A DNA stretch of 64,000 nucleotides from Candidatus Hydrogenedentota bacterium (GTDB lineage: Bacteria; Hydrogenedentota; Hydrogenedentia; Hydrogenedentales; JAEUWI01): the NCBI GenBank assembly GCA_034669905.1, contig JAXMOL010000001.1, forward strand, positions 96,001 through 160,000, given 5' to 3'. This document shows, one piece after another, positions 18,495 to 56,041 of the stretch. A model generated the notes under the pieces. The model was not told the origin of the DNA. It was given only the letters and a program-made list of their open reading frames with translations, and did no database searches. A program made the position numbers and the translations under genes. Numbering within the stretch: position 1 is the first letter of the stretch; each line of letters opens with the position of its first letter.

Positions 18495-18724
18495 TGTCGA
18501 TCCTCCCACGCCGAGTCCCATAAGTGACGTGTTTTGGCCATCAGGCCGTTTACAGTCTCACTCAATCTCCGGAATCACGCCCGTATACCCCACGCCCCAC
18601 GTGAGATATACCGTACAATACTGCACGCTGTTTCCAAATTAACCGATAGGAGCAATTCTGTCAAGAGTTTTCTAGAGTAAGGAAGAAGGGCCACGGGGAT
18701 ACGGCGTGTCCGGGCTCGGAAGCC

Positions 18725-45392: not shown

Positions 45393-46025
45393 TTAGAGGG
45401 CGGATAGCATGCGGACTATCTGCTCGTGCCCCTCTTTCCTGGCGACATCGGCTGCCGTGTCGCCTTCGTTGTTCTTGATGGCGGTGTCGGCATGGTGATC
45501 GAGCAGGACCCGCACGACGCTTTGGCCTCCGTTGTGGGCCGCCCGGTGCAGTGCCGTATCCCCGGTCTGGGTCTGTGCATTGATAGCGGCCCCCGCATCG
45601 AGCAGCGTCTGGACGACCTTCGCGTTTTCCCGCGCGGCCGCATAATGCAACGCGGTCCAATTGGCGCGGGTGCGTGCATCGACCTCGGCACCATGTTCCA
45701 GAAGAAAACTGACATCGTGATCATGGCAACGGGCGGCGGAAATGTGGAGGGGAGTCAAGCCCCAGTCATTCACCGCATTCACATCTGCCTGCCGCTTCAT
45801 CAGATAGGCCATAATATCGAGATTGCCCCATGCGGCCGCAGAGTGCAGGGGCGTCATCCCATATTCACCGCGGCTGTCTATGGGGATACCTTCATCCAGA
45901 AGTGCCGCCACATCGCGGGGCGTACCATCCGTGACGGCTTCATGGATGGTCTCAAAACGCACTTCCGGAGTCACGCAACTGCTGAGCCCCAAGGCCAGCG
46001 CACCTAGTAGGACACGTGATTTCAT
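45393..46025 (-). CDS. Ankyrin-repeat lipoprotein
   Basis: Lipobox LSSC; GMTPLH, GLTPLH, TALH, GDTALH repeats. Confidence 0.9.
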   Translation of the reverse strand: MKSRVLLGALALGLSSCVTPEVRFETIHEAVTDGTPRDVAALLDEGIPIDSRGEYGMTPLHSAAAWGNLDIMAYLMKRQADVNAVNDWGLTPLHISAARCHDHDVSFLLEHGAEVDARTRANWTALHYAAARENAKVVQTLLDAGAAINAQTQTGDTALHRAAHNGGQSVVRVLLDHHADTAIKNNEGDTAADVARKEGHEQIVRMLSAL

Positions 46026-46112
46026 GACCACTCCTTTCCGCCCCAACCCGGGGCAACCGGGTATCGGAGGAGACGCCATTGCATTCCGCACGCCTCCATC
46101 GCTCAACCGCTA

Positions 46113-47549
46113 CTAAAGCCCCAGCACACCCAGTATCTCCGGATTCTCCTCCTGCCACGTAACCACGTTGTGGCAACTCGTGCAGTCCTGGCTGATGATG
46201 TTTGCGCCATCGCGGCTGCTGTGACCATCATCGTGGCACCGAAAGCAGCCATCGAACTGGGTATGCCCATTGTGGTCCGGATAGGTCCCCCAACCAATAT
46301 CCATTGCGGGAAATATATTCTTCCGATAAATATCCTGAATCGCACGAATCGCTTCGTCCAGGGACTCGGCCCGTTCTGCCACAATCTCACCGTGGTTCTC
46401 CGCATAGAAGCCTTCCAGATGGGATTGGATGAATACCGTGGCATCTTCGGCATCAAGCGCCCCCTCCAGGGCGGCCAGTCCCGCCATTTTTACAGAGGGC
46501 AAGGTCTTATCAATCCGTCCTTCATCCAGGGCCTCGTTGAGTGCGGGCCCGGGCATCTTGAAGCGGTGGGTGGCCCGATTATGGCAGTCCGTACAGTCCA
46601 TTTGGCGGAGCGCCTCTTCAGGAATCTCGTTGCCCTCCTGAGAAAATCCGTCGGCATAATATTCGACGACCGAGCCATCCGGATTTACCGAGCGTATGTA
46701 GCCGATTTCCTCCCGTTTGTCGTCGGTGGAGTAATAGCGTATTTCCCGGCCTGGCGCCAGGTGCCACGTATGAATACCGGAGCCCGCGGCGTCGCGGCCT
46801 CCCACGTGCATGAGCAGGACGGACGTCAGGGGCGTATTGTTTTCGTCGGAGGCATAATCCGTGGTCACCTTCAGCACATCGCCCAAATCCATTTCGGGAT
46901 TGTGACACTCCCCGCAGGTTTCCTCCGCCTGGGCCAGGTTGTGAACGGGCACGGGTATGGGGGTTTCGTAGCTTCCGGTAAGCACCCCATAGACCTGATT
47001 GAGCCCATTCAACTTCGCATGGACCAGTGCGGGTACCCCCGGCCCGATGTGGCAATCCACGCACTTGACCATGGCGTGGGGAGAATTCATATGGGCGGTA
47101 AATTCAGGTTCCATCACCGTGTGACAGGTTGTCCCGCAAAACGCGACAGACTCCATATAGACGGCCCCCTCGTAGCTGATAAGGGAGATCAACATGAAGT
47201 TGAAGGCGGTCAGAAAACCGACGATGATGGCGAGCCGTTGAATGCGCGGGCTGTTGAAATCCAGTTTGATGTGGGCGGGTTCGTCGCTGTTGAGCGCCCG
47301 GCGACGGCGGCGGTCCCACCAGGCCCCCACGGGGATTATCAGCAATCCCAAGACGAATACGGCGGGCAACAGCAGATAGGTCAGAAGCCCGATGTAGGGC
47401 GAAAGGGGCACGCCTAAAAGGGTCATCACCATAAATACCAGAATGGCAAGGGCGCTCACGGTGGTCAGGCTACTACCGAATAGGGTAATCCAGTTACGCC
47501 AAATCAACTGCCCTGCGGCTCCCAGCCAGCTTTTCTCTGGACGATTCAT
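46113..47549 (-). CDS. NapC/NirT-like membrane-anchored multiheme cytochrome c
   Basis: Three N-terminal TM helices; FCGTTCHTVM.PE; CVDCHIG; CGECH, CTDCH, CFRCH, CTSCH (6 heme motifs). Confidence 0.85.
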   Translation of the reverse strand: MNRPEKSWLGAAGQLIWRNWITLFGSSLTTVSALAILVFMVMTLLGVPLSPYIGLLTYLLLPAVFVLGLLIIPVGAWWDRRRRRALNSDEPAHIKLDFNSPRIQRLAIIVGFLTAFNFMLISLISYEGAVYMESVAFCGTTCHTVMEPEFTAHMNSPHAMVKCVDCHIGPGVPALVHAKLNGLNQVYGVLTGSYETPIPVPVHNLAQAEETCGECHNPEMDLGDVLKVTTDYASDENNTPLTSVLLMHVGGRDAAGSGIHTWHLAPGREIRYYSTDDKREEIGYIRSVNPDGSVVEYYADGFSQEGNEIPEEALRQMDCTDCHNRATHRFKMPGPALNEALDEGRIDKTLPSVKMAGLAALEGALDAEDATVFIQSHLEGFYAENHGEIVAERAESLDEAIRAIQDIYRKNIFPAMDIGWGTYPDHNGHTQFDGCFRCHDDGHSSRDGANIISQDCTSCHNVVTWQEENPEILGVLGL

Positions 47550-47590
47550 CCGTCTATTTTCTCCCCGCGTTCCGTATGCTTTTAGGGGAA

Positions 47591-47617
47591 GGGGAAGGTG
47601 AACGAGTCACCTTCCCC
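47591..47617. terminator. Intergenic hairpin between the decaheme and NapC-like genes
   Basis: GGGGAAGGTGA/TCACCTTCCCC 11-bp stem. Confidence 0.5.
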
Positions 47618-47639
47618 ACACTCCATTAACCTTGTGCTA

Positions 47640-49751
47640 TCACGGCCCCATATTGTGGACATCAATGACGGCGAAGTCCGCGCCGCTGTCGTGACAAACG
47701 GAGCAGGATTCTACCCGTGCACCGGGATCCGTATTGAGGATGGCGTGCACTTCGGCCACCAGACTATCGTGACAGGATGTGCAGGAGGCGCGCTCCGGCA
47801 ACTTCTCGGAGACGATTGTGGTGCCGTCAGAGATAACGGTCGAGATGGCATCCATGGACAGGGGAATCTCGAAAGAACCGTCCACGTGACACATCTCACA
47901 GTTTCTCAAATCACCGGGGAATTCGATCTCGGTGAAGTCGTGGGCCGTACCGCCGAATCCGAAGACCGTAAACGCCATCTCCAACTCGGAGCCACGGTGA
48001 ATCTTATGGATCATGTCTTTGAAGTTAATCGTCTCCGGCGGCAATTGCTCCTCCGTGCGCCGTGCGATATCGGTCCCATTGGGGTTGTGGCACATCACAC
48101 AGCTATCCACACCGACCCGAAGGCTTCCGTGGAACCGCAGCTCGCTGTGACAGGCGTTGCACTTGGCGTCATCGATGATCTGACGACGTTCCACCGGCTC
48201 ACTATTGTTCACCGTGAAAATCATCCGTCCATTGGACGCCGTCCCCTGGGTAATCGTCTCTCCCAGGAGGTCAAAGCGCACCCGACCTTCCATCGCTACC
48301 GCGAAGGTCGCTTCGCTGTCGACCGGCACCTGTTCTGTGAACGTGTAGCTGAAGGTGCCATCCCCGTTGTCCGTCGCGTTGGCCGCTGTGATCGTTTCGC
48401 GGAAAGCCTGTTCATAATCGCTTACCGGATAGGCCAGGGTCGCGGCAACGGTAGCCAGCTCGCTCAGGTCGCCATAGGCTTCCCCAGCGCCATTTTCCGC
48501 CGTGAAATTTATCGTAACTGCAGCACCGGTCTCCAGGGCTTCGGTGGTCACGCTATTCACGGTCAAGGACAGGCCCGGAGCAATCGGGCTATCGGTAGCA
48601 AGACGGTGGGCCTCCAGAATGGGGGCAGGCCCCGGGGCCGTGGGGGTGTGACACAGTGCGCACAGACTGTTGTCCACCTGCTGGCCCGCCACGTGGTTGG
48701 TGAAGCCCTCCGGCGTGGCCAGGGGCTCGCCAAACCAGGCGCGATCATGACAGGAAGCGCAGCCTTCGATGGTCGGTGTCGTCATGTAAATGTCGGACAT
48801 GGCCGCATCGGTATGACACGCCGTACAATTCTCCACCGGCTGGGGAAAATGCACGTCGGAATAGTCATGCACCGAATTGCGGAAGCCAATAATCTGATAG
48901 GCCACACCTGCCTGCACGCTTGGCAGACCGGCGCCCTGGTGAATCTTGTGGATCATCTCGGCAAAGTCAACGCTATTGCCGGAATTCGCATCCACGGAAC
49001 CCTGATTATGGCAGAGGATACACAACTGGACTTCCCGACGGGCACCGCCGTGGATTGCCAACCGGGTATGACATACGTTGCAGGTCTCGGTATTCACGAT
49101 CTCCCGTGAACCCAACGCTGTGCCTCCATCGGGACGGAAAGCCAGTACCGGATTGGCGGGATACTCTAATTCATCAATCGGGAACAACCGTTCCAACTGT
49201 CCCCCCACCTGATGCGTCGCATCCCGCGGGTAGTCGGCGGGCAGGCTGCTTGCAAAGCGGTAGGAAAATTCCCCGTCATCGCCCTGGACCACTCCGCCCA
49301 GTCGGGCGCTGTCGTAGGTCGCTTGCGTGCCCTCGTCACCGGTCCCCGCGGTCCCGTCGGGGTCTTCGGTTTGGGAAATGTAGCTCACATACCGCGCGCT
49401 ACTGCCTTCGGGCGGTGCCTGCTCCAGATAGGCCAGAATGAAACGGACGTCGGAAAGCTCACGAAGGGGAATCGGTTCACCCGCGTCATCCTGCGCCGTA
49501 AAGTGCACCACCGGGCGCAAGTCAGCGGGAATCTCGACCGACAGGATATCCACCTGTAGCCCCGGCGAAGTCGAAACGGGCGTTACCATCACCGGATCCG
49601 GGTCGGGATCGGGGTCGGGATCAGGGTCCGGATCGGGGTCGGGGGTCGTTATCAGAGGACACCCGGCCAGTAACAGGACCGCGAGCAACGGGGTCCAGAG
49701 GCCCCACCATCCCCCGTTGCGTTCATGTGTTTTCGGTGTATACCCAATCAC
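47640..49751 (-). CDS. OmcA/MtrC-family decaheme cytochrome lipoprotein
   Basis: Lipobox LLAGC, (PD)n linker; 10 CxxCH in two pentaheme blocks separated by a beta domain; MIHKIH twice. Confidence 0.9.
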   Translation of the reverse strand: MIGYTPKTHERNGGWWGLWTPLLAVLLLAGCPLITTPDPDPDPDPDPDPDPDPVMVTPVSTSPGLQVDILSVEIPADLRPVVHFTAQDDAGEPIPLRELSDVRFILAYLEQAPPEGSSARYVSYISQTEDPDGTAGTGDEGTQATYDSARLGGVVQGDDGEFSYRFASSLPADYPRDATHQVGGQLERLFPIDELEYPANPVLAFRPDGGTALGSREIVNTETCNVCHTRLAIHGGARREVQLCILCHNQGSVDANSGNSVDFAEMIHKIHQGAGLPSVQAGVAYQIIGFRNSVHDYSDVHFPQPVENCTACHTDAAMSDIYMTTPTIEGCASCHDRAWFGEPLATPEGFTNHVAGQQVDNSLCALCHTPTAPGPAPILEAHRLATDSPIAPGLSLTVNSVTTEALETGAAVTINFTAENGAGEAYGDLSELATVAATLAYPVSDYEQAFRETITAANATDNGDGTFSYTFTEQVPVDSEATFAVAMEGRVRFDLLGETITQGTASNGRMIFTVNNSEPVERRQIIDDAKCNACHSELRFHGSLRVGVDSCVMCHNPNGTDIARRTEEQLPPETINFKDMIHKIHRGSELEMAFTVFGFGGTAHDFTEIEFPGDLRNCEMCHVDGSFEIPLSMDAISTVISDGTTIVSEKLPERASCTSCHDSLVAEVHAILNTDPGARVESCSVCHDSGADFAVIDVHNMGP

Positions 49752-49892
49752 AACGACCTCCCTTCACAGAATCACTATCTGATTCTCGTAGTGCCAAGAT
49801 TCGCTCTCAGCGCGGCGATTAAACGGCTCCCGGGCTCTGGAAAGTGCCCACACGAACGACCTTGAGCATCTCCCTACTGTCATATAGAGGAA

Positions 49893-49909
49893 AGCTTAAG
49901 TCGTGCCAA
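49893..49909 (-). promoter_or_regulatory. Putative sigma54 (-24/-12) promoter for the decaheme/NapC operon
   Basis: Minus strand TTGGCACGACTTAAGCT (GG-N10-GC), about 140 nt upstream of the start codon. Confidence 0.55.
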
Positions 49910-50015
49910 CTTTCCTGATATACCCCGATCTCGTTCCGGACCCTGCGACATCGCCCAAAGAAGGGGCGATGCCATGGCATTGGCGGAACGTCCGGGTGTG
50001 CCAAGAGTGTCCATT

Positions 50016-50031
50016 AGTACAGTACTGTACT
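50016..50031. promoter_or_regulatory. Perfect 16-bp palindrome, candidate regulator site
   Basis: AGTACAGTACTGTACT in the divergent intergenic region. Confidence 0.45.
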
Positions 50032-50081
50032 GCCCACAATTGCGCAAGTACCATCTTAAGCCGATGCGCGGAGGGAAGCCC

Positions 50082-50110
50082 TTGACAGCATACCCGAACC
50101 GTGATAGCGT
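50082..50110 (+). promoter_or_regulatory. Putative sigma70 promoter for the porin-cytochrome operon
   Basis: TTGACA-17 nt-TAGCGT with extended -10 TG. Confidence 0.5.
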
Positions 50111-50284
50111 GAGTGGACGTTACAGGCGGGCGCACCAGTGTCCTGTTGGCACGGAATTCTCTATAGCGACTTACAGATCGACGTACGCCACGTGATATTT
50201 CACGATACTCGGAAGTCTTTTACACGACCGAATCGGAGGTTGTCGTGTCAATGTGTCGGTACCACGTAGAGGGAATGGTGTGCC

Positions 50285-51325
50285 GTGAGCAATACAGCTG
50301 ACAAGCGAACTGGACGGGCCATCGCTTCGGGGATTCGCCGGGGGAGTTGGGTCCTTTGCCTGCTCGTTCTGGGAGTCTTTTCCCTGGGGGCAGACAGCTG
50401 TCAGAACTCTTCGCTCGGGCCCGGCGAAGTGGGTAGCGCCACCTGTCTGGCCTGTCACGATGGCCGTAGCGCCAGTAACCACCTGGAATTTCTGGACAGC
50501 CCTCACCAGGGTTTGTCGTGCGAGTCTTGCCATGGCCCCGGCCTGACCCACGTGCAACAGGGGGGCCGATTGGGGCTCTTCATCGACAATCCCAATCGTT
50601 ATCCCTTTGACACGCGGCACACGGCCTGCATCACCTGCCACAGCGACATCGTCTCGCCCGTTGGAATCGGTGCCCAGGGCTTTCTTGCGACCAACCATTT
50701 CCTGGAAGGCGCCGCAACCTGCACCGATTGCCACGATGTGCACAAGCAGGGGGGCATGCTGATCAGCAGCACGTCACCCGCACGGTTCGGGAATGCAAAC
50801 TACGCCACCCTCTGCGGGAGCTGTCACGTCGATCAAGTGGAACAATTCTCGCTGAGCGGCCATGCCCAAAAAGACGTCGCGACGTGCTCCAGTTGCCACG
50901 ACATGCACGCGGGTGACATGTTCCGTGCAGACCCCACAACCAATCGCCTTTGCCTCCAATGCCATCAGAGTTTTGCCCTGGGATTTCAACGGGATGTGGA
51001 CGTGGATTTCCATACGGGCGACATGCACCCCGTCGATCCGGCAGGTTCCGGTTCAAGCCGATGCACCGGGTGTCACTTGCCACCCAACGCAGGCAGCTCG
51101 GCGGTTCAGCCAAGCCATGATCACACCCTCTTTACAATCCCGCCGATTGCCAGTAATGACGCCGTCGCAATGGGTGTGGAACCCGCTCCCCCCAATTCCT
51201 GTGCAGGCGTAACGGGGTGTCATGATCCCGTACAGCCGAATTCCGGTCCCCCTTACGACGAAAATGACCTGGAAAGCAATACGCGACTGCAGTCGCTCTA
51301 CGAAATCATCGGAGCACGGCCATGA
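50285..51325 (+). CDS. Multiheme cytochrome c (8 CxxCH plus one CX5CH), DmsE/MtrA-like N-terminus, possible lipoprotein
   Basis: VGSATCLACH, CESCHGPG, CITCH, CTDCH, CGSCH, CSSCH, CLQCH, CTGCH, CAGVTGCH. Confidence 0.85.
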   Translation: MSNTADKRTGRAIASGIRRGSWVLCLLVLGVFSLGADSCQNSSLGPGEVGSATCLACHDGRSASNHLEFLDSPHQGLSCESCHGPGLTHVQQGGRLGLFIDNPNRYPFDTRHTACITCHSDIVSPVGIGAQGFLATNHFLEGAATCTDCHDVHKQGGMLISSTSPARFGNANYATLCGSCHVDQVEQFSLSGHAQKDVATCSSCHDMHAGDMFRADPTTNRLCLQCHQSFALGFQRDVDVDFHTGDMHPVDPAGSGSSRCTGCHLPPNAGSSAVQPSHDHTLFTIPPIASNDAVAMGVEPAPPNSCAGVTGCHDPVQPNSGPPYDENDLESNTRLQSLYEIIGARP

Positions 51326-52977
51326 AGGGTGTCCCAAGCCCACTATCCCCGAGGAGACCCTTTGGCAGAAAAATCGTTACGGAGCTGAACGCCCTGAACT
51401 CGTACCTGGGAAAAGGATTGGGGGCCATACTGCTTTGCCTGCTCCTGCTTACCTGCTCCCCCGCGCCGTGCTTCGCCGAGGCGGAAGACGGGGCGCCCGC
51501 AGCGGAGGCCACAGAAAACACCCAGGACGACACCGCCTCGGACACAGCGGAGGAGGAGGCCGTGCTGCCAACGGACTCGGACACTGCGGCAGGCAACGGA
51601 ACACGACGTTGGTACCGGGGCACCTTTGAAACGGAGATGGACACGGTTTTCTCTCGCAGCGACGAGGACATCGATTTCAGTCAGTTTCTCCGGTTAGAGG
51701 TAGACCCCCCTCAATACAGTCGCCTGCACCTCCGGGGCTCGCTCTGGCTACATCAGGATTTGAGTTCGGATAGGGACAAACCAAACACACTGCGGGACAT
51801 CAACGATGCTTCGAGTGCCGATGTTCAGGCGCGCTTGCTCTATCTCTACGCGAAGATCGACGATGCCCTGGGTACCAACTCCGAGTTAAGAATCGGACGT
51901 CAGCGGATCCAGGAGGGCGCCACCTACAATCGTATCGACGGGCTCTATGGCCGAAAGCGCGTCGGGCAGTGGGAAGGCTATGCCTTTGTGGGAGCCCGCG
52001 CCTCGATATACCGGGACACCACCGATGATCTGGTGCTCGGTGGTGGCCTTGCATGGATCCCCACGCCCCATACCCGTATTGCCCTGGATGGTTACTATGC
52101 GGAGGAAAGTCGCTACGGAGTATCCGACAGAAGTCGCCGGTTCGGGGGCTGGATACGCCCGGTGGCGTCGGAGCTTAATGACAGTAAGACGACCCTGAGT
52201 CTGTGGCACAATTTCGGTGTGAACACCCGGCTCTTCGCCCGTATCGGTATGTTGGGTAGTGACGTGGACGAGCTGTCGCTGAGTCTGAATGGGTACATAC
52301 CCCGGCTGGACCTCCTCTACGACCTCCACTACCGCCAGCTGTTTGAAACGACGGGCGACACCACGGCCGACCTCTCCCCCTTCTACCAGATTCTCGGTCA
52401 GTACCGGGAACACCAGACCCTCTACCTGGGCCTCCACCGCCCCTTGACGGAGTCGGTCACCCTTACCCTGGAAGGTGAGATTCGCAATGCAGAGAACGAT
52501 GACTTTTACTCGGGAAACCGAGACTATGTTCGGGTTGGCACCGTGTTGTACGTGGATGACGTCTTTCAGGAGGTCGACGTCTCGACTTCCCTGGAGTACT
52601 GGGATGTCTCTGGCGGTGAAGGCACCTGGACAGTGACCGGAGAAATAAGCCGCTCGTGGGGCACCGTGGACGGGCGCTTCGGCGTCGATTACGTCCGCTA
52701 CAAGGATCGTGTCGTGGAGTATGACCAGCGCGCGGCCCTGGTAGACGCGGCCCTGGTGGCCTTTGTACCCGGCATCTATCCCGGCTTCTCTTACGCGGCC
52801 CGCAGGGCCAGCACCCGGATTGTGGATACCCGGGAAAATGTCTACAGCGTGTATGCCGAGGTGGAGTGGGCCTTTCAGGAGGATCAGGATGTCTACACCA
52901 AGATTTCCTTTGAAGAGGACGATAGCCCCGATTCGCCCTATTGGCGAATCCGCGCCGGCTATCGGCTGCGTTTTTAG
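51322..52977 (+). CDS. Predicted outer-membrane beta-barrel (porin of a porin-cytochrome complex)
   Basis: Signal peptide, amphipathic beta strands, LRIGRQ, C-terminal YRLRF; lies between two multiheme genes. Confidence 0.78.
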   Translation: MKGVPSPLSPRRPFGRKIVTELNALNSYLGKGLGAILLCLLLLTCSPAPCFAEAEDGAPAAEATENTQDDTASDTAEEEAVLPTDSDTAAGNGTRRWYRGTFETEMDTVFSRSDEDIDFSQFLRLEVDPPQYSRLHLRGSLWLHQDLSSDRDKPNTLRDINDASSADVQARLLYLYAKIDDALGTNSELRIGRQRIQEGATYNRIDGLYGRKRVGQWEGYAFVGARASIYRDTTDDLVLGGGLAWIPTPHTRIALDGYYAEESRYGVSDRSRRFGGWIRPVASELNDSKTTLSLWHNFGVNTRLFARIGMLGSDVDELSLSLNGYIPRLDLLYDLHYRQLFETTGDTTADLSPFYQILGQYREHQTLYLGLHRPLTESVTLTLEGEIRNAENDDFYSGNRDYVRVGTVLYVDDVFQEVDVSTSLEYWDVSGGEGTWTVTGEISRSWGTVDGRFGVDYVRYKDRVVEYDQRAALVDAALVAFVPGIYPGFSYAARRASTRIVDTRENVYSVYAEVEWAFQEDQDVYTKISFEEDDSPDSPYWRIRAGYRLRF

Positions 52978-52994
52978 TGAGTAAAGGAGCAACC

Positions 52995-54068
52995 ATGACG
53001 CACAGGCCTGGATTTCGCGGGATCGCGTTGGCGATGATCGCATTGTTTGGCGTCACCGTTGCCTCCGATGCGGCCCTGTTCGGCCGATCGGGGAAATCGG
53101 TGGACCGCGGCCTGAAATCGGGCCACAATGCCCACATCGAGCAGCAATTGGACTGTGCCACCTGTCACGTGTGGGAAGAAAACCGGCATGTAATGCCAGG
53201 ACACAACCTGTGCAGTATATGCCACGAGATCGATGAAACTGCGACCGACAAGGCTTCCTGTAACTTCTGCCACACCCGGGAGGACCAAAGTGTCGGTCCC
53301 GTCATCAAACGGATGAGTGTGGAAACGATTTTTGGGCATGAAGCCCACCTGGACGTTTCTCTGGATTGTATGGAATGTCACAAGACGCCCGGTGAAATAC
53401 CGGATCTGCCGAAGGGGCCACTCATGCCCTGGTGCATGACCTGCCACGCGACGTCAGAACCACCCAAGCTGGAATCGGGCCTGCCCGACCGGGCCTTTGC
53501 GTCGAATGACTGTGCCGTCTGCCACCGCGAACTCAGCCTGGAAACGCGGCCCCAGTTTCGGGGCGGCGCCCGGATCGCCCACGATGCACCCGATATCTGG
53601 TTGAAGACCCACGGCCGGGAAGCCCAGTTTGACCCCCAGTATTGTGCGATGTGCCATGATACGGTCGCGACCTGTGAAGATTGTCACAGCCGCATGAAGC
53701 CCGACAACCACACGATAGCGTGGCGCCGTAAACCCCACGGATTGCGGGCGGTCATCGATCAGAACAACTGTGCGGTTTGCCATGAAGAAGATTCGTGTAT
53801 CAAGTGCCATGAAAAAACCAAACCGACCAGCCACCGGGCTGGATTCGGCGGCTCGCTCAACCGACATTGTGTCTCGTGTCACTATCCCCCCCAGGAAAGT
53901 TCCTGCACCGCATGTCACCAGAATATCGAGCACCGTAAGGCCCGCCGGTCGCCCCATGGACTGGGCATCTACCCGGTCAACTGTGCCGCCTGCCATCCGG
54001 GCGGCCTGCCCAACCGCGCGCCCCATCTTGTAAACAATTCGGTAAGCTGCCGGACCTGCCATGAATAG
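52995..54068 (+). CDS. Periplasmic 14-heme cytochrome c (c3/c7-like)
   Basis: AAGGAG RBS; signal peptide; 14 CxxCH motifs; FGHEAH. Confidence 0.88.
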   Translation: MTHRPGFRGIALAMIALFGVTVASDAALFGRSGKSVDRGLKSGHNAHIEQQLDCATCHVWEENRHVMPGHNLCSICHEIDETATDKASCNFCHTREDQSVGPVIKRMSVETIFGHEAHLDVSLDCMECHKTPGEIPDLPKGPLMPWCMTCHATSEPPKLESGLPDRAFASNDCAVCHRELSLETRPQFRGGARIAHDAPDIWLKTHGREAQFDPQYCAMCHDTVATCEDCHSRMKPDNHTIAWRRKPHGLRAVIDQNNCAVCHEEDSCIKCHEKTKPTSHRAGFGGSLNRHCVSCHYPPQESSCTACHQNIEHRKARRSPHGLGIYPVNCAACHPGGLPNRAPHLVNNSVSCRTCHE

Positions 54069-54138
54069 CTTGTTACTTAGTTACCGCGTCTGCCCTGCGG
54101 GACTGCCCGCTCGGGTCGGCGCCAGGAAAGGAAAACCT

Positions 54139-54738
54139 ATGCATACGCTTTCACGGAATGCCCTCATCACCCTCAGCCTCCTGCTTGCTGCCAGCCTGGT
54201 CCAGGCCGAGGAGGCCAAAGACTTCATTGGCCATGACCAATGTAAAGTCTGCCACAACAAGAAGCCGGAAGGAGCCCAGTGGGACGTCTGGAAGGCGATG
54301 AAACACGCCAACGCCTTTGAAGCCCTCAAGAGTGATGCAGCCAAGAAAATTGGGGAAGAGCGGGGCCTCGCCAAGCCCCCCCACGAAGCCCCGGAATGCG
54401 TGAAGTGCCACGTGACGGGCTATAATCTGGAAAAAATGGAAGTGCCCGCCAAGATCAAGATGGCCGACGGCGTCCAGTGTGAAACCTGCCACGGGGCGGG
54501 GGCCGCGCATGTGGCCGACGGTCGCGATGTAATGTTTAAGAAGAAGACCGCAGACGAAATCGACTGGACGGCCCACCTGAAGAAGGTGGAGGAAGCGACC
54601 TGCCTGGCCTGCCATAACGAAGAGAGCCCCACCTGGAACCCGGAACAATTTACCCGGGAGGATGGCACGAAGGTGGGATTCGACTTTGAGCAGGCCAAGG
54701 AAATCGTTTCCCATCCCAACCCAACCAAGGCCAAGTAA
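54139..54738 (+). CDS. Tetraheme cytochrome c554-like protein
   Basis: Signal peptide; FIG...CKVCH, W...KHA.A, CVKCHVTG, GVQCETCHG.G..H, CLACH. Confidence 0.85.
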   Translation: MHTLSRNALITLSLLLAASLVQAEEAKDFIGHDQCKVCHNKKPEGAQWDVWKAMKHANAFEALKSDAAKKIGEERGLAKPPHEAPECVKCHVTGYNLEKMEVPAKIKMADGVQCETCHGAGAAHVADGRDVMFKKKTADEIDWTAHLKKVEEATCLACHNEESPTWNPEQFTREDGTKVGFDFEQAKEIVSHPNPTKAK

Positions 54739-54910: not shown

Positions 54911-55900
54911 TCAGGGGAAATCACTTCCCGGCCACATCACGCTTTGATAGAACCCACTGGCAATACCCTCCTCGCCGGGTGCGAAGATGTGGTTCGCAAT
55001 GTGCAGAGCGATGCCTGCCGCATTGATGGGGAACTGGCCGCCGGTGGGCAGGGGCGCGCTTTCGAATACCACCGTACCCGTCGATTCTCCCGGATACTTG
55101 AAGAAGGCCACGTGCCCGTCGGCAAAGAGCACATTGGCACCACCCGGCACATGGTTGAAGCTCTCGGCCGCATCCGCAATGTTGTCAAGCATAATTGCCA
55201 ACGTCGATTGCGAAGCTGCCGACGCAGCAGGGTTATTGATGTCGGTTATGAAAAACCGTTCAACCCCTTCCCGGAGCCGCAGCGCGCGATCGTAGCCACC
55301 GGGCAAGGGCACCGCGAAGTCCCAGTCTTCCTCGACCCGATAGACATTCTCGTAGATGCGCGCACCGAAGTCCTGCACACTGGCGTAGAACGCGGCCGAC
55401 TGGGCCGGCGTTTGAACCATTTCGTTACTGATGGCCCATCCCAGGTAGGTGTAGGGATGACCCAGGAACTCACACGGCTCAATGGCGCCACTGTTGGTGA
55501 ACCCGGGCGTATCCACGTAATTATCGGAACCCACGTTTCCCCCATCATAGGTGCTCAGTGCATCGCCGGTCGTTGAGGCGGCACTCGGGCAAATGAGGAT
55601 GTTGGCATCATTCATGTATTCGGGATAGACCTGCTCTCCATCGAAGATGGTGTCGAGGGAAGAGACAGTACCATCGCATCGTCTGGTCTTAATGGCGGGA
55701 AACTTTTCTCCCCGGCTTTCGTTGGCATACATCTTAAAGATGATCCCAAACTGCTTCAGGTTATTCTGGCAGCTTGCCCGACGGGCTGCTTCCCGGGCAC
55801 GGGCCAGGGCCGGCAGCAGGATGGCTGCGAGAATTCCAATGATGGCAATGACCACCAACAATTCGATCAGGGTAAATCCCCGGGTGGAATGTTTCTTCAT
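54911..55900 (-). CDS. DUF1559 prepilin-type N-terminal methylation protein with H-X9-DG C-terminal motif
   Basis: [60 protein letters not shown]. Confidence 0.93.
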
Positions 55901-55905
55901 GAAAT

Positions 55906-56041
55906 CGCTTCCTTGGAAATAGCCGTGCGGACGCACCACGGTTCCATACCCGTGTTGGTCGACGTTACGCACGGCAGACGATCGGACCCAAGATGGTCCG
56001 GCAAGTGAATAAATCAGCGTGTCTGCATCCAAAGAGAAGCG
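55906..56041 (-). promoter_or_regulatory. Predicted SD-sequestering RNA structure controlled by the upstream RAPP leader
   Basis: CGCUUCUCUUUGGA (56041-56028) can pair with UCCAAGGAAGCG (55917-55906, includes the SD); inner stems GCCGTGCG/CGCACGGC and CGGACC/GGTCCG. Confidence 0.65.

Follow-up and report, generated by a model that had tools for sequence, protein, structure and literature searches.

Porin-cytochrome conduits, and the modularity of their parts, are already known (PMC4245776; PMC8805035); these and the other published sources are cited here for the parts of them on which we drew. In Geobacter sulfurreducens, the porin-cytochrome (Pcc) system comprises the porin OmbB, the 8-haem cytochrome OmaB and the 12-haem lipoprotein OmcB, and clusters of this type were surveyed by Shi et al. 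2014 (PMC4245776); besides the porin they have a multihaem cytochrome with 5-14 haems and a lipoprotein cytochrome of the outer membrane, in which atypical haem motifs are frequent. A two-gene Pcc layout has been described for kuste4024/4025 of Candidatus Kuenenia (PMC4245776; bioRxiv 10.1101/855817), and for this pair Shi et al. proposed that one large cytochrome may cross the outer membrane by itself, with no further cytochrome on the outside (PMC4245776). Genes of the OmcA/MtrC family are also known outside the Proteobacteria and, in the part of the source used here, are accompanied there by MtrAB (PMC12133095). Here we describe a locus of six genes, A to F, encoding multihaem cytochromes and a predicted outer-membrane barrel, in a 64,000-nucleotide stretch (hereafter the window) of a Candidatus Hydrogenedentota bacterium (assembly GCA_034669905.1, contig JAXMOL010000001.1, positions 96,001 to 160,000). 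In our best reading of this locus, a Pcc-type conduit has acquired a surface cytochrome of MtrC type and a quinol oxidase of ImcH type. The Hydrogenedentota are uncultured and are usually described as fermenters or polymer degraders.

We consider it probable that A, F, E, D, C and B form a Pcc-type porin-cytochrome conduit leading from the quinol pool to extracellular acceptors. In such a conduit, electrons would enter at the inner membrane through the oxidation of menaquinol by A, F would ferry them through the periplasm, and E, sheathed by D, would act as the trans-outer-membrane wire. C and B at the surface would then deliver them to solid acceptors such as Fe(III)/Mn(IV) oxides or humic matter. 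The original prediction for this DNA had described two divergent operons, and all six open reading frames (ORFs) were found in their places (Table 1). Its count of 42-43 haem motifs also stands, as we found 41 CXXCH motifs, one CX3CH and one conserved CX5CH. E lies in an ORF at 52941-54068 whose probable real start is the ATG at 52995, preceded by AAGGAG, and F lies in an ORF at 54061-54738 with a probable start at the ATG at 54139. The whole 7.44-Mb genome holds 16 stop-to-stop frames of at least 80 aa with at least three CXXCH (111 motifs), and five of these frames, with 41 of the 111 motifs, fall within the locus. The clustering of haem motifs at the locus is not chance, their density being far above the genome background. 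All genes of the locus are single-copy in their own genome.

Table 1. Features of the locus; positions are counted from the first nucleotide of the window.
Feature	Position	Strand	Details
A: ImcH-like inner-membrane multihaem cytochrome, predicted quinol oxidase	46113..47549	-	478 aa, 5 CXXCH + 1 CX3CH
B: OmcA/MtrC-family decahaem lipoprotein, predicted cell-surface terminal cytochrome	47640..49751	-	703 aa, 10 CXXCH, lipobox LLAGC
Divergent intergenic region between the B-A(-G) and C-D-E-F operons	49752..50284	.	533 bp between divergent starts
C: 8(+1)-haem cytochrome, distant MtrA/DmsE relative, probable lipoprotein	50285..51325	+	346 aa, 8 CXXCH + CX5CH at residue 306
D: predicted 22-strand outer-membrane beta-barrel, porin-like sheath, unannotated family	51322..52977	+	551 aa, without haem motif
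E: 14-haem cytochrome of c7-type modules, predicted haem wire housed in D	52995..54068	+	14 CXXCH in 357 aa
F: c554-like tetrahaem cytochrome, predicted soluble periplasmic shuttle	54139..54738	+	4 CXXCH, PF13435
G: ankyrin-repeat lipoprotein, possible operon member	45393..46106	-	Ankyrin Pfam matches; signal peptide with LSSC

The proposed conduit depends on D being an outer-membrane barrel. D gave no match to Pfam or NCBIfam at E≤0.01, and a profile of its family retrieved nothing from the PDB sequences at E≤10, MtrB of 6R2Q included. We built an AlphaFold2 (AF2) model on 41 homologues, with a mean predicted local distance difference test score (pLDDT) of 76.6 and most strand blocks above 90. 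The model begins with a signal helix, which is followed by an acidic, disordered linker (residues 47-92) and by 22 beta strands over residues 98-550, and the C-terminus (...YRLRF) ends in a Phe that is invariant among homologues. Foldseek matched the model to outer-membrane barrels only. A Foldseek-independent structure search placed 22-strand TonB-dependent receptor barrels first (Cir, Z 18.9, 373 residues aligned) and MtrB (6r2q_B), with 26 strands to the 22 predicted in D, at rank 21 (Z 16.3, root-mean-square deviation 6.0, 353 residues aligned). We thus predict D to be a large plug-less outer-membrane barrel, smaller than MtrB and no detectable relative of it. Both the earlier beta-barrel call and the description of a shorter porin, not of MtrB size, hold for this model. 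Consistent with the absence of an MtrB signal in D, the MtrB/PioB family PF11854 had no match anywhere in the genome, which is 95.7% complete.

D has 49 close homologues, the named ones from Candidatus Hydrogenedentes. The original prediction had proposed synteny in relatives as a check, and we surveyed, with ORF calls and BLAST, 24 loci encoding a D relative in species-representative genomes; by record name 15 of them are Hydrogenedent-, five Nitrospir- and one 'FCB group'. A homologue of E lies directly downstream of D in all 22 loci with downstream DNA and has exactly 14 CXXCH each time, in keeping with the 14 haems first assigned to E. A homologue of C lies directly upstream of D in 21 of the 22 loci with upstream DNA, so that C-D-E is a conserved unit. 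At the exception, L015 (L015:2-1285), an ORF with 21 or more CXXCH, truncated by the contig end, stands in the position of C. F follows downstream of E in 11 of 22 loci, and A and B each occur in eight loci of the set.

More distant relatives of D extend the pairing with E beyond this phylum. An exhaustive search with the D-family profile returned 533 cluster representatives at E≤0.001, 48 of them at E≤1e-30, and the named members of the distant clusters were hypothetical proteins of Candidatus Brocadiales, Candidatus Wunengus, other Planctomycetota, Omnitrophota and one deltaproteobacterium. For the Brocadiales-type barrel we retrieved 28 metagenome loci and examined the eight with enough flanking sequence. 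In 8/8 of these the gene immediately after the barrel, which is itself 23% identical to D along its length, encodes an E homologue of 340-380 aa with 13 or 14 CXXCH, 31-33% identical to E over its length and carrying a canonical lipobox (e.g. LLGGC). BLAST found no C homologue in any of the eight. The presence of the barrel and E homologue together in every one of these loci suggests that D-E is an old two-gene unit, and since the pair also occurs in Brocadiales-type Planctomycetota, D-E is probably the core of the conduit. In the scheme proposed here, D-E would be the ancient core, and C, B and A would be add-ons that the Hydrogenedentota keep linked to it. Downstream of the barrel and 13-haem pair, L037 (L037:6673-8656), as well as L041 and L055, encodes a 156-aa 4-haem and a 479-aa 5-haem protein; the 4-haem protein is a weak match to the NapC/NirT-like part of A, and its pairing with the 5-haem protein recalls NrfH/NrfA.

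E itself is predicted to be the haem wire. The E family profile matches the pentahaem ActA subunits of alternative complex III (ACIII) at E of about 1e-19, and chain 3ov0_A, which we take to be the Geobacter 12-haem cytochrome GSU1996, at E 2.1e-18 in three stretches. As judged from these profile matches, E is a polymer of c7-type modules. Foldseek of an E model with a pLDDT of 65 found nothing in the PDB at E≤0.001, the best match being ACIII ActA at E 0.15. A lipobox-like Cys is present in E in most distant Hydrogenedentota orthologues and has been lost in the clade of the window (the window, L002, L003 and L024).

An outer-membrane barrel could also serve as an ordinary solute or polymer channel, with the cytochromes confined to the periplasm, for example in nitrogen or sulfur redox metabolism, and no wire across the outer membrane. 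In its favour, the nearest folds to that of D are those of TonB-dependent receptors, ushers, AlgE and Occ channels; a homologue of D (P0025) is entered at NCBI as a 'TonB-dependent receptor', and F is similar to c554 of nitrifiers. We rejected D as a TonB-dependent receptor, as it has neither a plug domain nor a Pfam match to that family, and for the same reason the name given to P0025 is probably a misannotation from barrel likeness. Against an ordinary channel, the 14-haem E also invariably comes next after D, in two phyla. The genes for C and D overlap (the stop of C and the start of D share an ATGA at 51322-51325), and Pfam and NCBIfam scans found no catalytic N or S enzyme encoded in the locus. 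We therefore regard this explanation as very improbable, and return to a barrel that sheathes a cytochrome.

Upstream of the barrel, C had been called an 8(+1)-haem cytochrome. Besides its eight CXXCH it carries the motif PNSCxGxxGCHD (CX5CH), and since this is invariant in 22/22 aligned orthologues, the '+1' haem site is probably real. C scored 71.2 bits against the MtrA/DmsE profile TIGR03508 (cut-off 192.2) and 94 bits against NF041028, also below cut-off. Nothing in the genome exceeded the TIGR03508 cut-off, and the best sub-threshold match was C itself. The best PDB sequence match of C was 6r2q chain A (E 3.8e-8), presumably the MtrA chain, although the search table labels it cystathionine beta-synthase. 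By these profile scores, C is a distant MtrA/DmsE homologue only, and it does not have ten haems. A lipobox-like Cys after its signal peptide is kept in orthologues.

C comes in two forms, with eight CXXCH in 11 loci and the window and six CXXCH in 10 loci, which differ by an insertion of ~50 residues carrying two haem motifs. Among loci with at least 4 kb of upstream sequence, a B gene is nearby in eight of nine with an 8-haem C, divergent and adjacent in seven, as against one of seven with a 6-haem C. That B mostly accompanies the 8-haem form, and not the 6-haem form, suggests contact between C and B. Two metagenome-assembled genomes (MAGs), L008 with L021 and L013 with L022, contain both forms, each in one of two C-D-E modules, and this coexistence indicates that the 6- and 8-haem forms are paralogous types and not just lineage variants. 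In these MAGs the 6-haem-C copy has no adjacent OmcA/MtrC gene, and the 8-haem-C copy has one in L022. Elsewhere, L017 (L017:1187-6326) encodes two extra large cytochromes, with 19 and 11 CXXCH, between an OmcA/MtrC fragment and C.

B scored 445.9 bits against TIGR03507 (cut-off 209.3), with residues 79-699 aligned to profile positions 7-672, and a search of the whole genome agreed and identified B as its sole OmcA/MtrC copy. PF22113 (MtrC/MtrF domain II/IV) matched B at 8e-58 in two stretches, and B aligned with MtrF 3pmq (E 3.3e-35, both halves) and OmcA 4lmh (E 2.1e-29). Its CXXCH motifs form two pentahaem groups, at residues 224, 244, 309, 331 and 364 and at residues 531, 551, 618, 657 and 683. 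On this profile and motif evidence B is a genuine OmcA/MtrC-family decahaem lipoprotein, as the original prediction had proposed, with a canonical lipobox followed by a (PD)n linker. A lipobox is also found in 5/7 full-length B orthologues (the N-termini of L007 and L025 lie outside that reading). In the orthologues of L007 and L025 a long extension precedes the N-terminal region and the linker is (GE)n instead of (PD)n, and this difference in linkers and N-termini indicates that the membrane tether of B varies. A CX8C disulfide in domain III is conserved in the OmcA/MtrC-family proteins of Shewanella. B holds 21 Cys, 20 in CXXCH and one in the lipobox, and with no Cys outside these it lacks that disulfide. 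Exposure of B at the cell surface is predicted, and is supported by the lipobox and by a GspD secretin that scored over cut-off in the genome, which also encodes a ResB system-II cytochrome maturation protein.

We next consider how widely the barrel and the surface cytochrome occur together. In a survey of 135 Hydrogenedentota genomes, a D-family barrel was present in 61 (41 of the 86 high-quality genomes, and 36 of 66 genera), an OmcA/MtrC gene over cut-off in 56 and an A-like gene in 58. A hand tally of the 135 genomes gave 54 with both barrel and OmcA, seven with the barrel only, two with OmcA only and 72 with neither; 55 genomes have an A-like gene together with the barrel. As the genomes are related to one another and so not independent, these counts are descriptive and do not amount to a test. 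Far from being a one-off, the locus represents a design conserved phylum-wide, in nearly half of the phylum's genomes. Near-identical DNA was found in 14 DNA sequencing runs from eight studies, covering plastic, sediment, estuary and marine metagenomes and one coded organism name; no RNA sequencing runs with near-identical sequence were found, which says nothing on expression.

The same survey bears on whether the two operons belong together at all. They could be functionally separate, B-A being a surface and inner-membrane module and C-D-E-F an unrelated conduit or periplasmic redox module. Where both barrel and OmcA are present, the two genes are on one contig within ~13 kb in 33 of 54 genomes and, by hand tally, on different contigs in 21; 6-haem-C loci are mostly without an adjacent B, and the Brocadiales-type D-E pairs occur without B, C or A. 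Such a separation is hard to reconcile with the tight co-occurrence of barrel and OmcA at the genome level, very few genomes having one without the other, and with a divergent adjacency that is conserved over 42-72% identity. In addition, since its own genome has no MtrB and no true MtrA, B is left without any other candidate trans-outer-membrane partner there. We consider two unconnected modules quite improbable, and take the divergent operons as parts of one conduit.

At the inner-membrane end of this conduit, A has hydrophobic segments at residues 20-80 (two helices) and 103-127, which gives three N-terminal transmembrane helices. A CX3CH at residue 138 lies next to the third helix, followed by CXXCH at 163, 212, 319, 435 and 456. 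Residues 108-210 match PF03264 (NapC/NirT) with 29.9 bits (cut-off 24.1), and residues 114-218 match TIGR03153 (NrfH) below cut-off. ImcH homologues, as described by Zhong and Shi (PMC6295460), have three N-terminal helices, a CX3CH beside the last helix and 5-9 CXXCH. A has this ImcH layout, with membership assigned by architecture, and the 6-haem NapC/NirT-like assignment made earlier, correct at the level of PF03264, can be narrowed to the more specific ImcH-like one. A has at least 7282 relatives at E≤1e-20, the named ones coming from Hydrogenedentes and Acidobacteriota as 'NapC/NirT family cytochrome c'. For F, the earlier c554-like tetrahaem call was borne out by a match to PF13435 (70.2 bits, cut-off 20.8) and by alignment of residues 29-189 with Nitrosomonas c554 1bvb (E 9.8e-10). 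F falls short of the NF043010 equivalog for Nitrosomonas c554 orthologues (52.6 bits, cut-off 400). Its signal peptide ends in ...VQA, without a lipobox Cys.

How these parts would be arranged at the outer membrane can be argued from the comparisons above. The 'complete conduit' of the original prediction is one predicted from the genome, and the places of B, C and E are those suggested by their signal peptides. We infer that a cytochrome docks in D, and between the two candidates E seems only slightly the likelier to sit inside the barrel, with C outside. Three considerations favour E: D-E is invariant across two phyla; fourteen closely spaced haems should span the barrel, for which a 6-haem C may be too short; and the association of 8-haem C with B suggests that C contacts B.

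Several observations weigh against the arrangement proposed here. A barrel fold alone shows no function, and the likeness of D to MtrB is one of general barrel fold only, TonB-dependent receptors scoring higher (Z 18.9) than MtrB (Z 16.3). Of the two cytochromes beside the barrel, C is closer to MtrA than E is. The AF2 model of E is poor, its pLDDT being the 65 given above. The topology is ambiguous, as C and E both carry a lipobox-like Cys in most orthologues, the E of the window having lost its Cys, and the lipobox of C (GADSC) is non-canonical. The association of 8-haem C with B rests on related loci, so the cases may not be independent, and because the tree of E orthologues is poorly resolved, with an unresolved backbone (10 of 20 inner branches), independent events of this association cannot be counted. 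Finally, the genome encodes two haem-copper oxidases, and these leave room for an inward flow of electrons, as in metal oxidation.

This last point concerns the direction in which the complex would work. The same proteins could carry electrons inward, from Fe(II), Mn(II), reduced humics or a syntrophic partner to the quinone pool and oxidases, in the manner of MtoAB and PioAB. Besides the oxidases, such a role would fit the reversibility in principle of porin-cytochrome conduits, the plastic and sediment metagenomes among the runs with near-identical DNA, and the Cyc2-type iron oxidases reported in Hydrogenedentota MAGs (PMC9769843). It fits less well with B, as surface decahaems of the OmcA/MtrC family are typical of reducing pathways. 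To our knowledge, MtrC is absent from the oxidising systems MtoAB and PioAB, which counts further against inward flow. With respect to A, the part of the study cited reports ImcH homologues from Fe(III) reducers alone and interprets them as quinol oxidases (PMC6295460). We regard inward operation as unlikely; the outward direction, which the ImcH-type and MtrC-type parts suggest by analogy, is the one we infer.

G, directly downstream of the ImcH-like gene A, may be an assembly factor; a G homologue adjoins A only in the three closest loci (L002, L004 and L024). On the other side, directly downstream of F on the opposite strand, is a DUF1559 / H-X9-DG prepilin-like gene (window 54911-56032, minus strand). 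The intergenic region between B and C contains a perfect 14-bp palindrome, GTACAGTACTGTAC, at 50017-50030, with one 2-mismatch copy at window 18613-18626. It was rejected as a conserved operator, since the intergenic regions of relatives have no GTAC-N6-GTAC. A simple scan found no sigma-70-like site in the intergenic region, and simple scans for promoters and terminators gave nothing above shuffled background that would define the operon ends. Elsewhere in the genome, C44:21932-33896 encodes 5-, 4- and 10-CXXCH proteins (687, 355 and 1022 aa), and C14:116084-135325 encodes an 8-CXXCH protein with a tetratricopeptide repeat (TPR) tail (798 aa) and a 13-CXXCH frame of 383 aa. Neither of these multihaem loci has a D relative, and none of their proteins is over the OmcA/MtrC cut-off.

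The original prediction had placed the locus in a lineage not known as a model electroactive organism; a 2024 hadal-sediment study had already counted 15 Hydrogenedentota MAGs as putative iron reducers from FeGenie matches (PMC10809760). In the literature, supplements aside, we found neither the locus architecture nor the D barrel family nor the D-E unit common with Brocadiales described. It is possible, at what we would put a little short of an even chance, that the pair of barrel and 14-haem lipoprotein common to Hydrogenedentota and anammox-type Planctomycetota represents an undescribed family of trans-outer-membrane wires, to which an MtrA-like adaptor, an MtrC-type decahaem and an ImcH-type oxidase were added in Hydrogenedentota. 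If this is true, MtrC-family cytochromes would be portable end-pieces for unrelated conduits, and nearly half of a 'fermenter' phylum would be unrecognised mineral or humic respirers. A conserved single-copy conduit in 61/135 genomes would link much of the phylum to iron, manganese and humic respiration in sediments, aquifers and biofilms. The locus separates an MtrC-type surface cytochrome from its canonical MtrAB partner, and D points to an unannotated barrel family missed by current marker sets (Pfam, NCBIfam). With only two genes, the D-E pair is also a compact candidate conduit that lends itself to structural studies and to transfer into chassis organisms.

Among known systems, the Geobacter Pcc clusters resemble the locus in having a small porin-like barrel (18-22 strands there, 22 predicted here) flanked by 8- and 12-14-haem cytochromes, one of which is a lipoprotein with an atypical haem motif (here C, as predicted), with extra inner-membrane and periplasmic cytochromes nearby. 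They differ in gene order, which is porin-periplasmic-outer there and C-D-E here, and D has no curated family, its likeness to OmbB being one of description. Unlike in Pcc, both C and E are lipoprotein-like in most orthologues, and genes for an OmcA/MtrC decahaem and an ImcH-like protein are found in linkage with the barrel gene. No named Geobacter proteins were among the D or E relatives found. Compared by description, the Brocadiales-type D relatives with their 13- or 14-haem E homologue have the same two-gene layout as Kuenenia kuste4024/4025. IALB_1837-1840 of Ignavibacterium album have a matching set of parts: the outer-membrane cytochrome carries an atypical motif, a second cytochrome of 400 aa has 14 haems, and a porin and a periplasmic cytochrome complete the cluster (PMC4245776). 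As far as these clusters are described in the parts of the sources used, both differ from the locus in having no OmcA/MtrC or ImcH partner. The 117 E homologues included no I. album protein, and IALB_1838/1839 were not among the 117 E or 49 D homologues, which came from shared-word searches that distant homology could escape.

A further comparison is with the EET1-4 clusters, named for extracellular electron transfer, of peat Acidobacteriota and Verrucomicrobiota (bioRxiv 10.64898/2026.05.27.727921), conserved in uncultured phyla, where syntenic MtrC-like, MtrA-like and other cytochromes accompany divergent porins, with low identity to model systems. These belong to other phyla and come with transcript data, and their likeness to D and E is by the description given in the part of that source we used. 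The tiers of the proposed conduit are those of Shewanella MtrCAB/CymA (6R2Q): a quinol oxidase, a shuttle, a barrel-sheathed cytochrome and a surface decahaem of the MtrC/OmcA/MtrF family, with C as a distant MtrA homologue. In contrast to the Shewanella system, D has 22 predicted strands instead of 26 and no PF11854 signal, there is no decahaem MtrA, the quinol oxidase is predicted to be of ImcH and not CymA type, B lacks the CX8C, and an extra 14-haem cytochrome stands beside the barrel.

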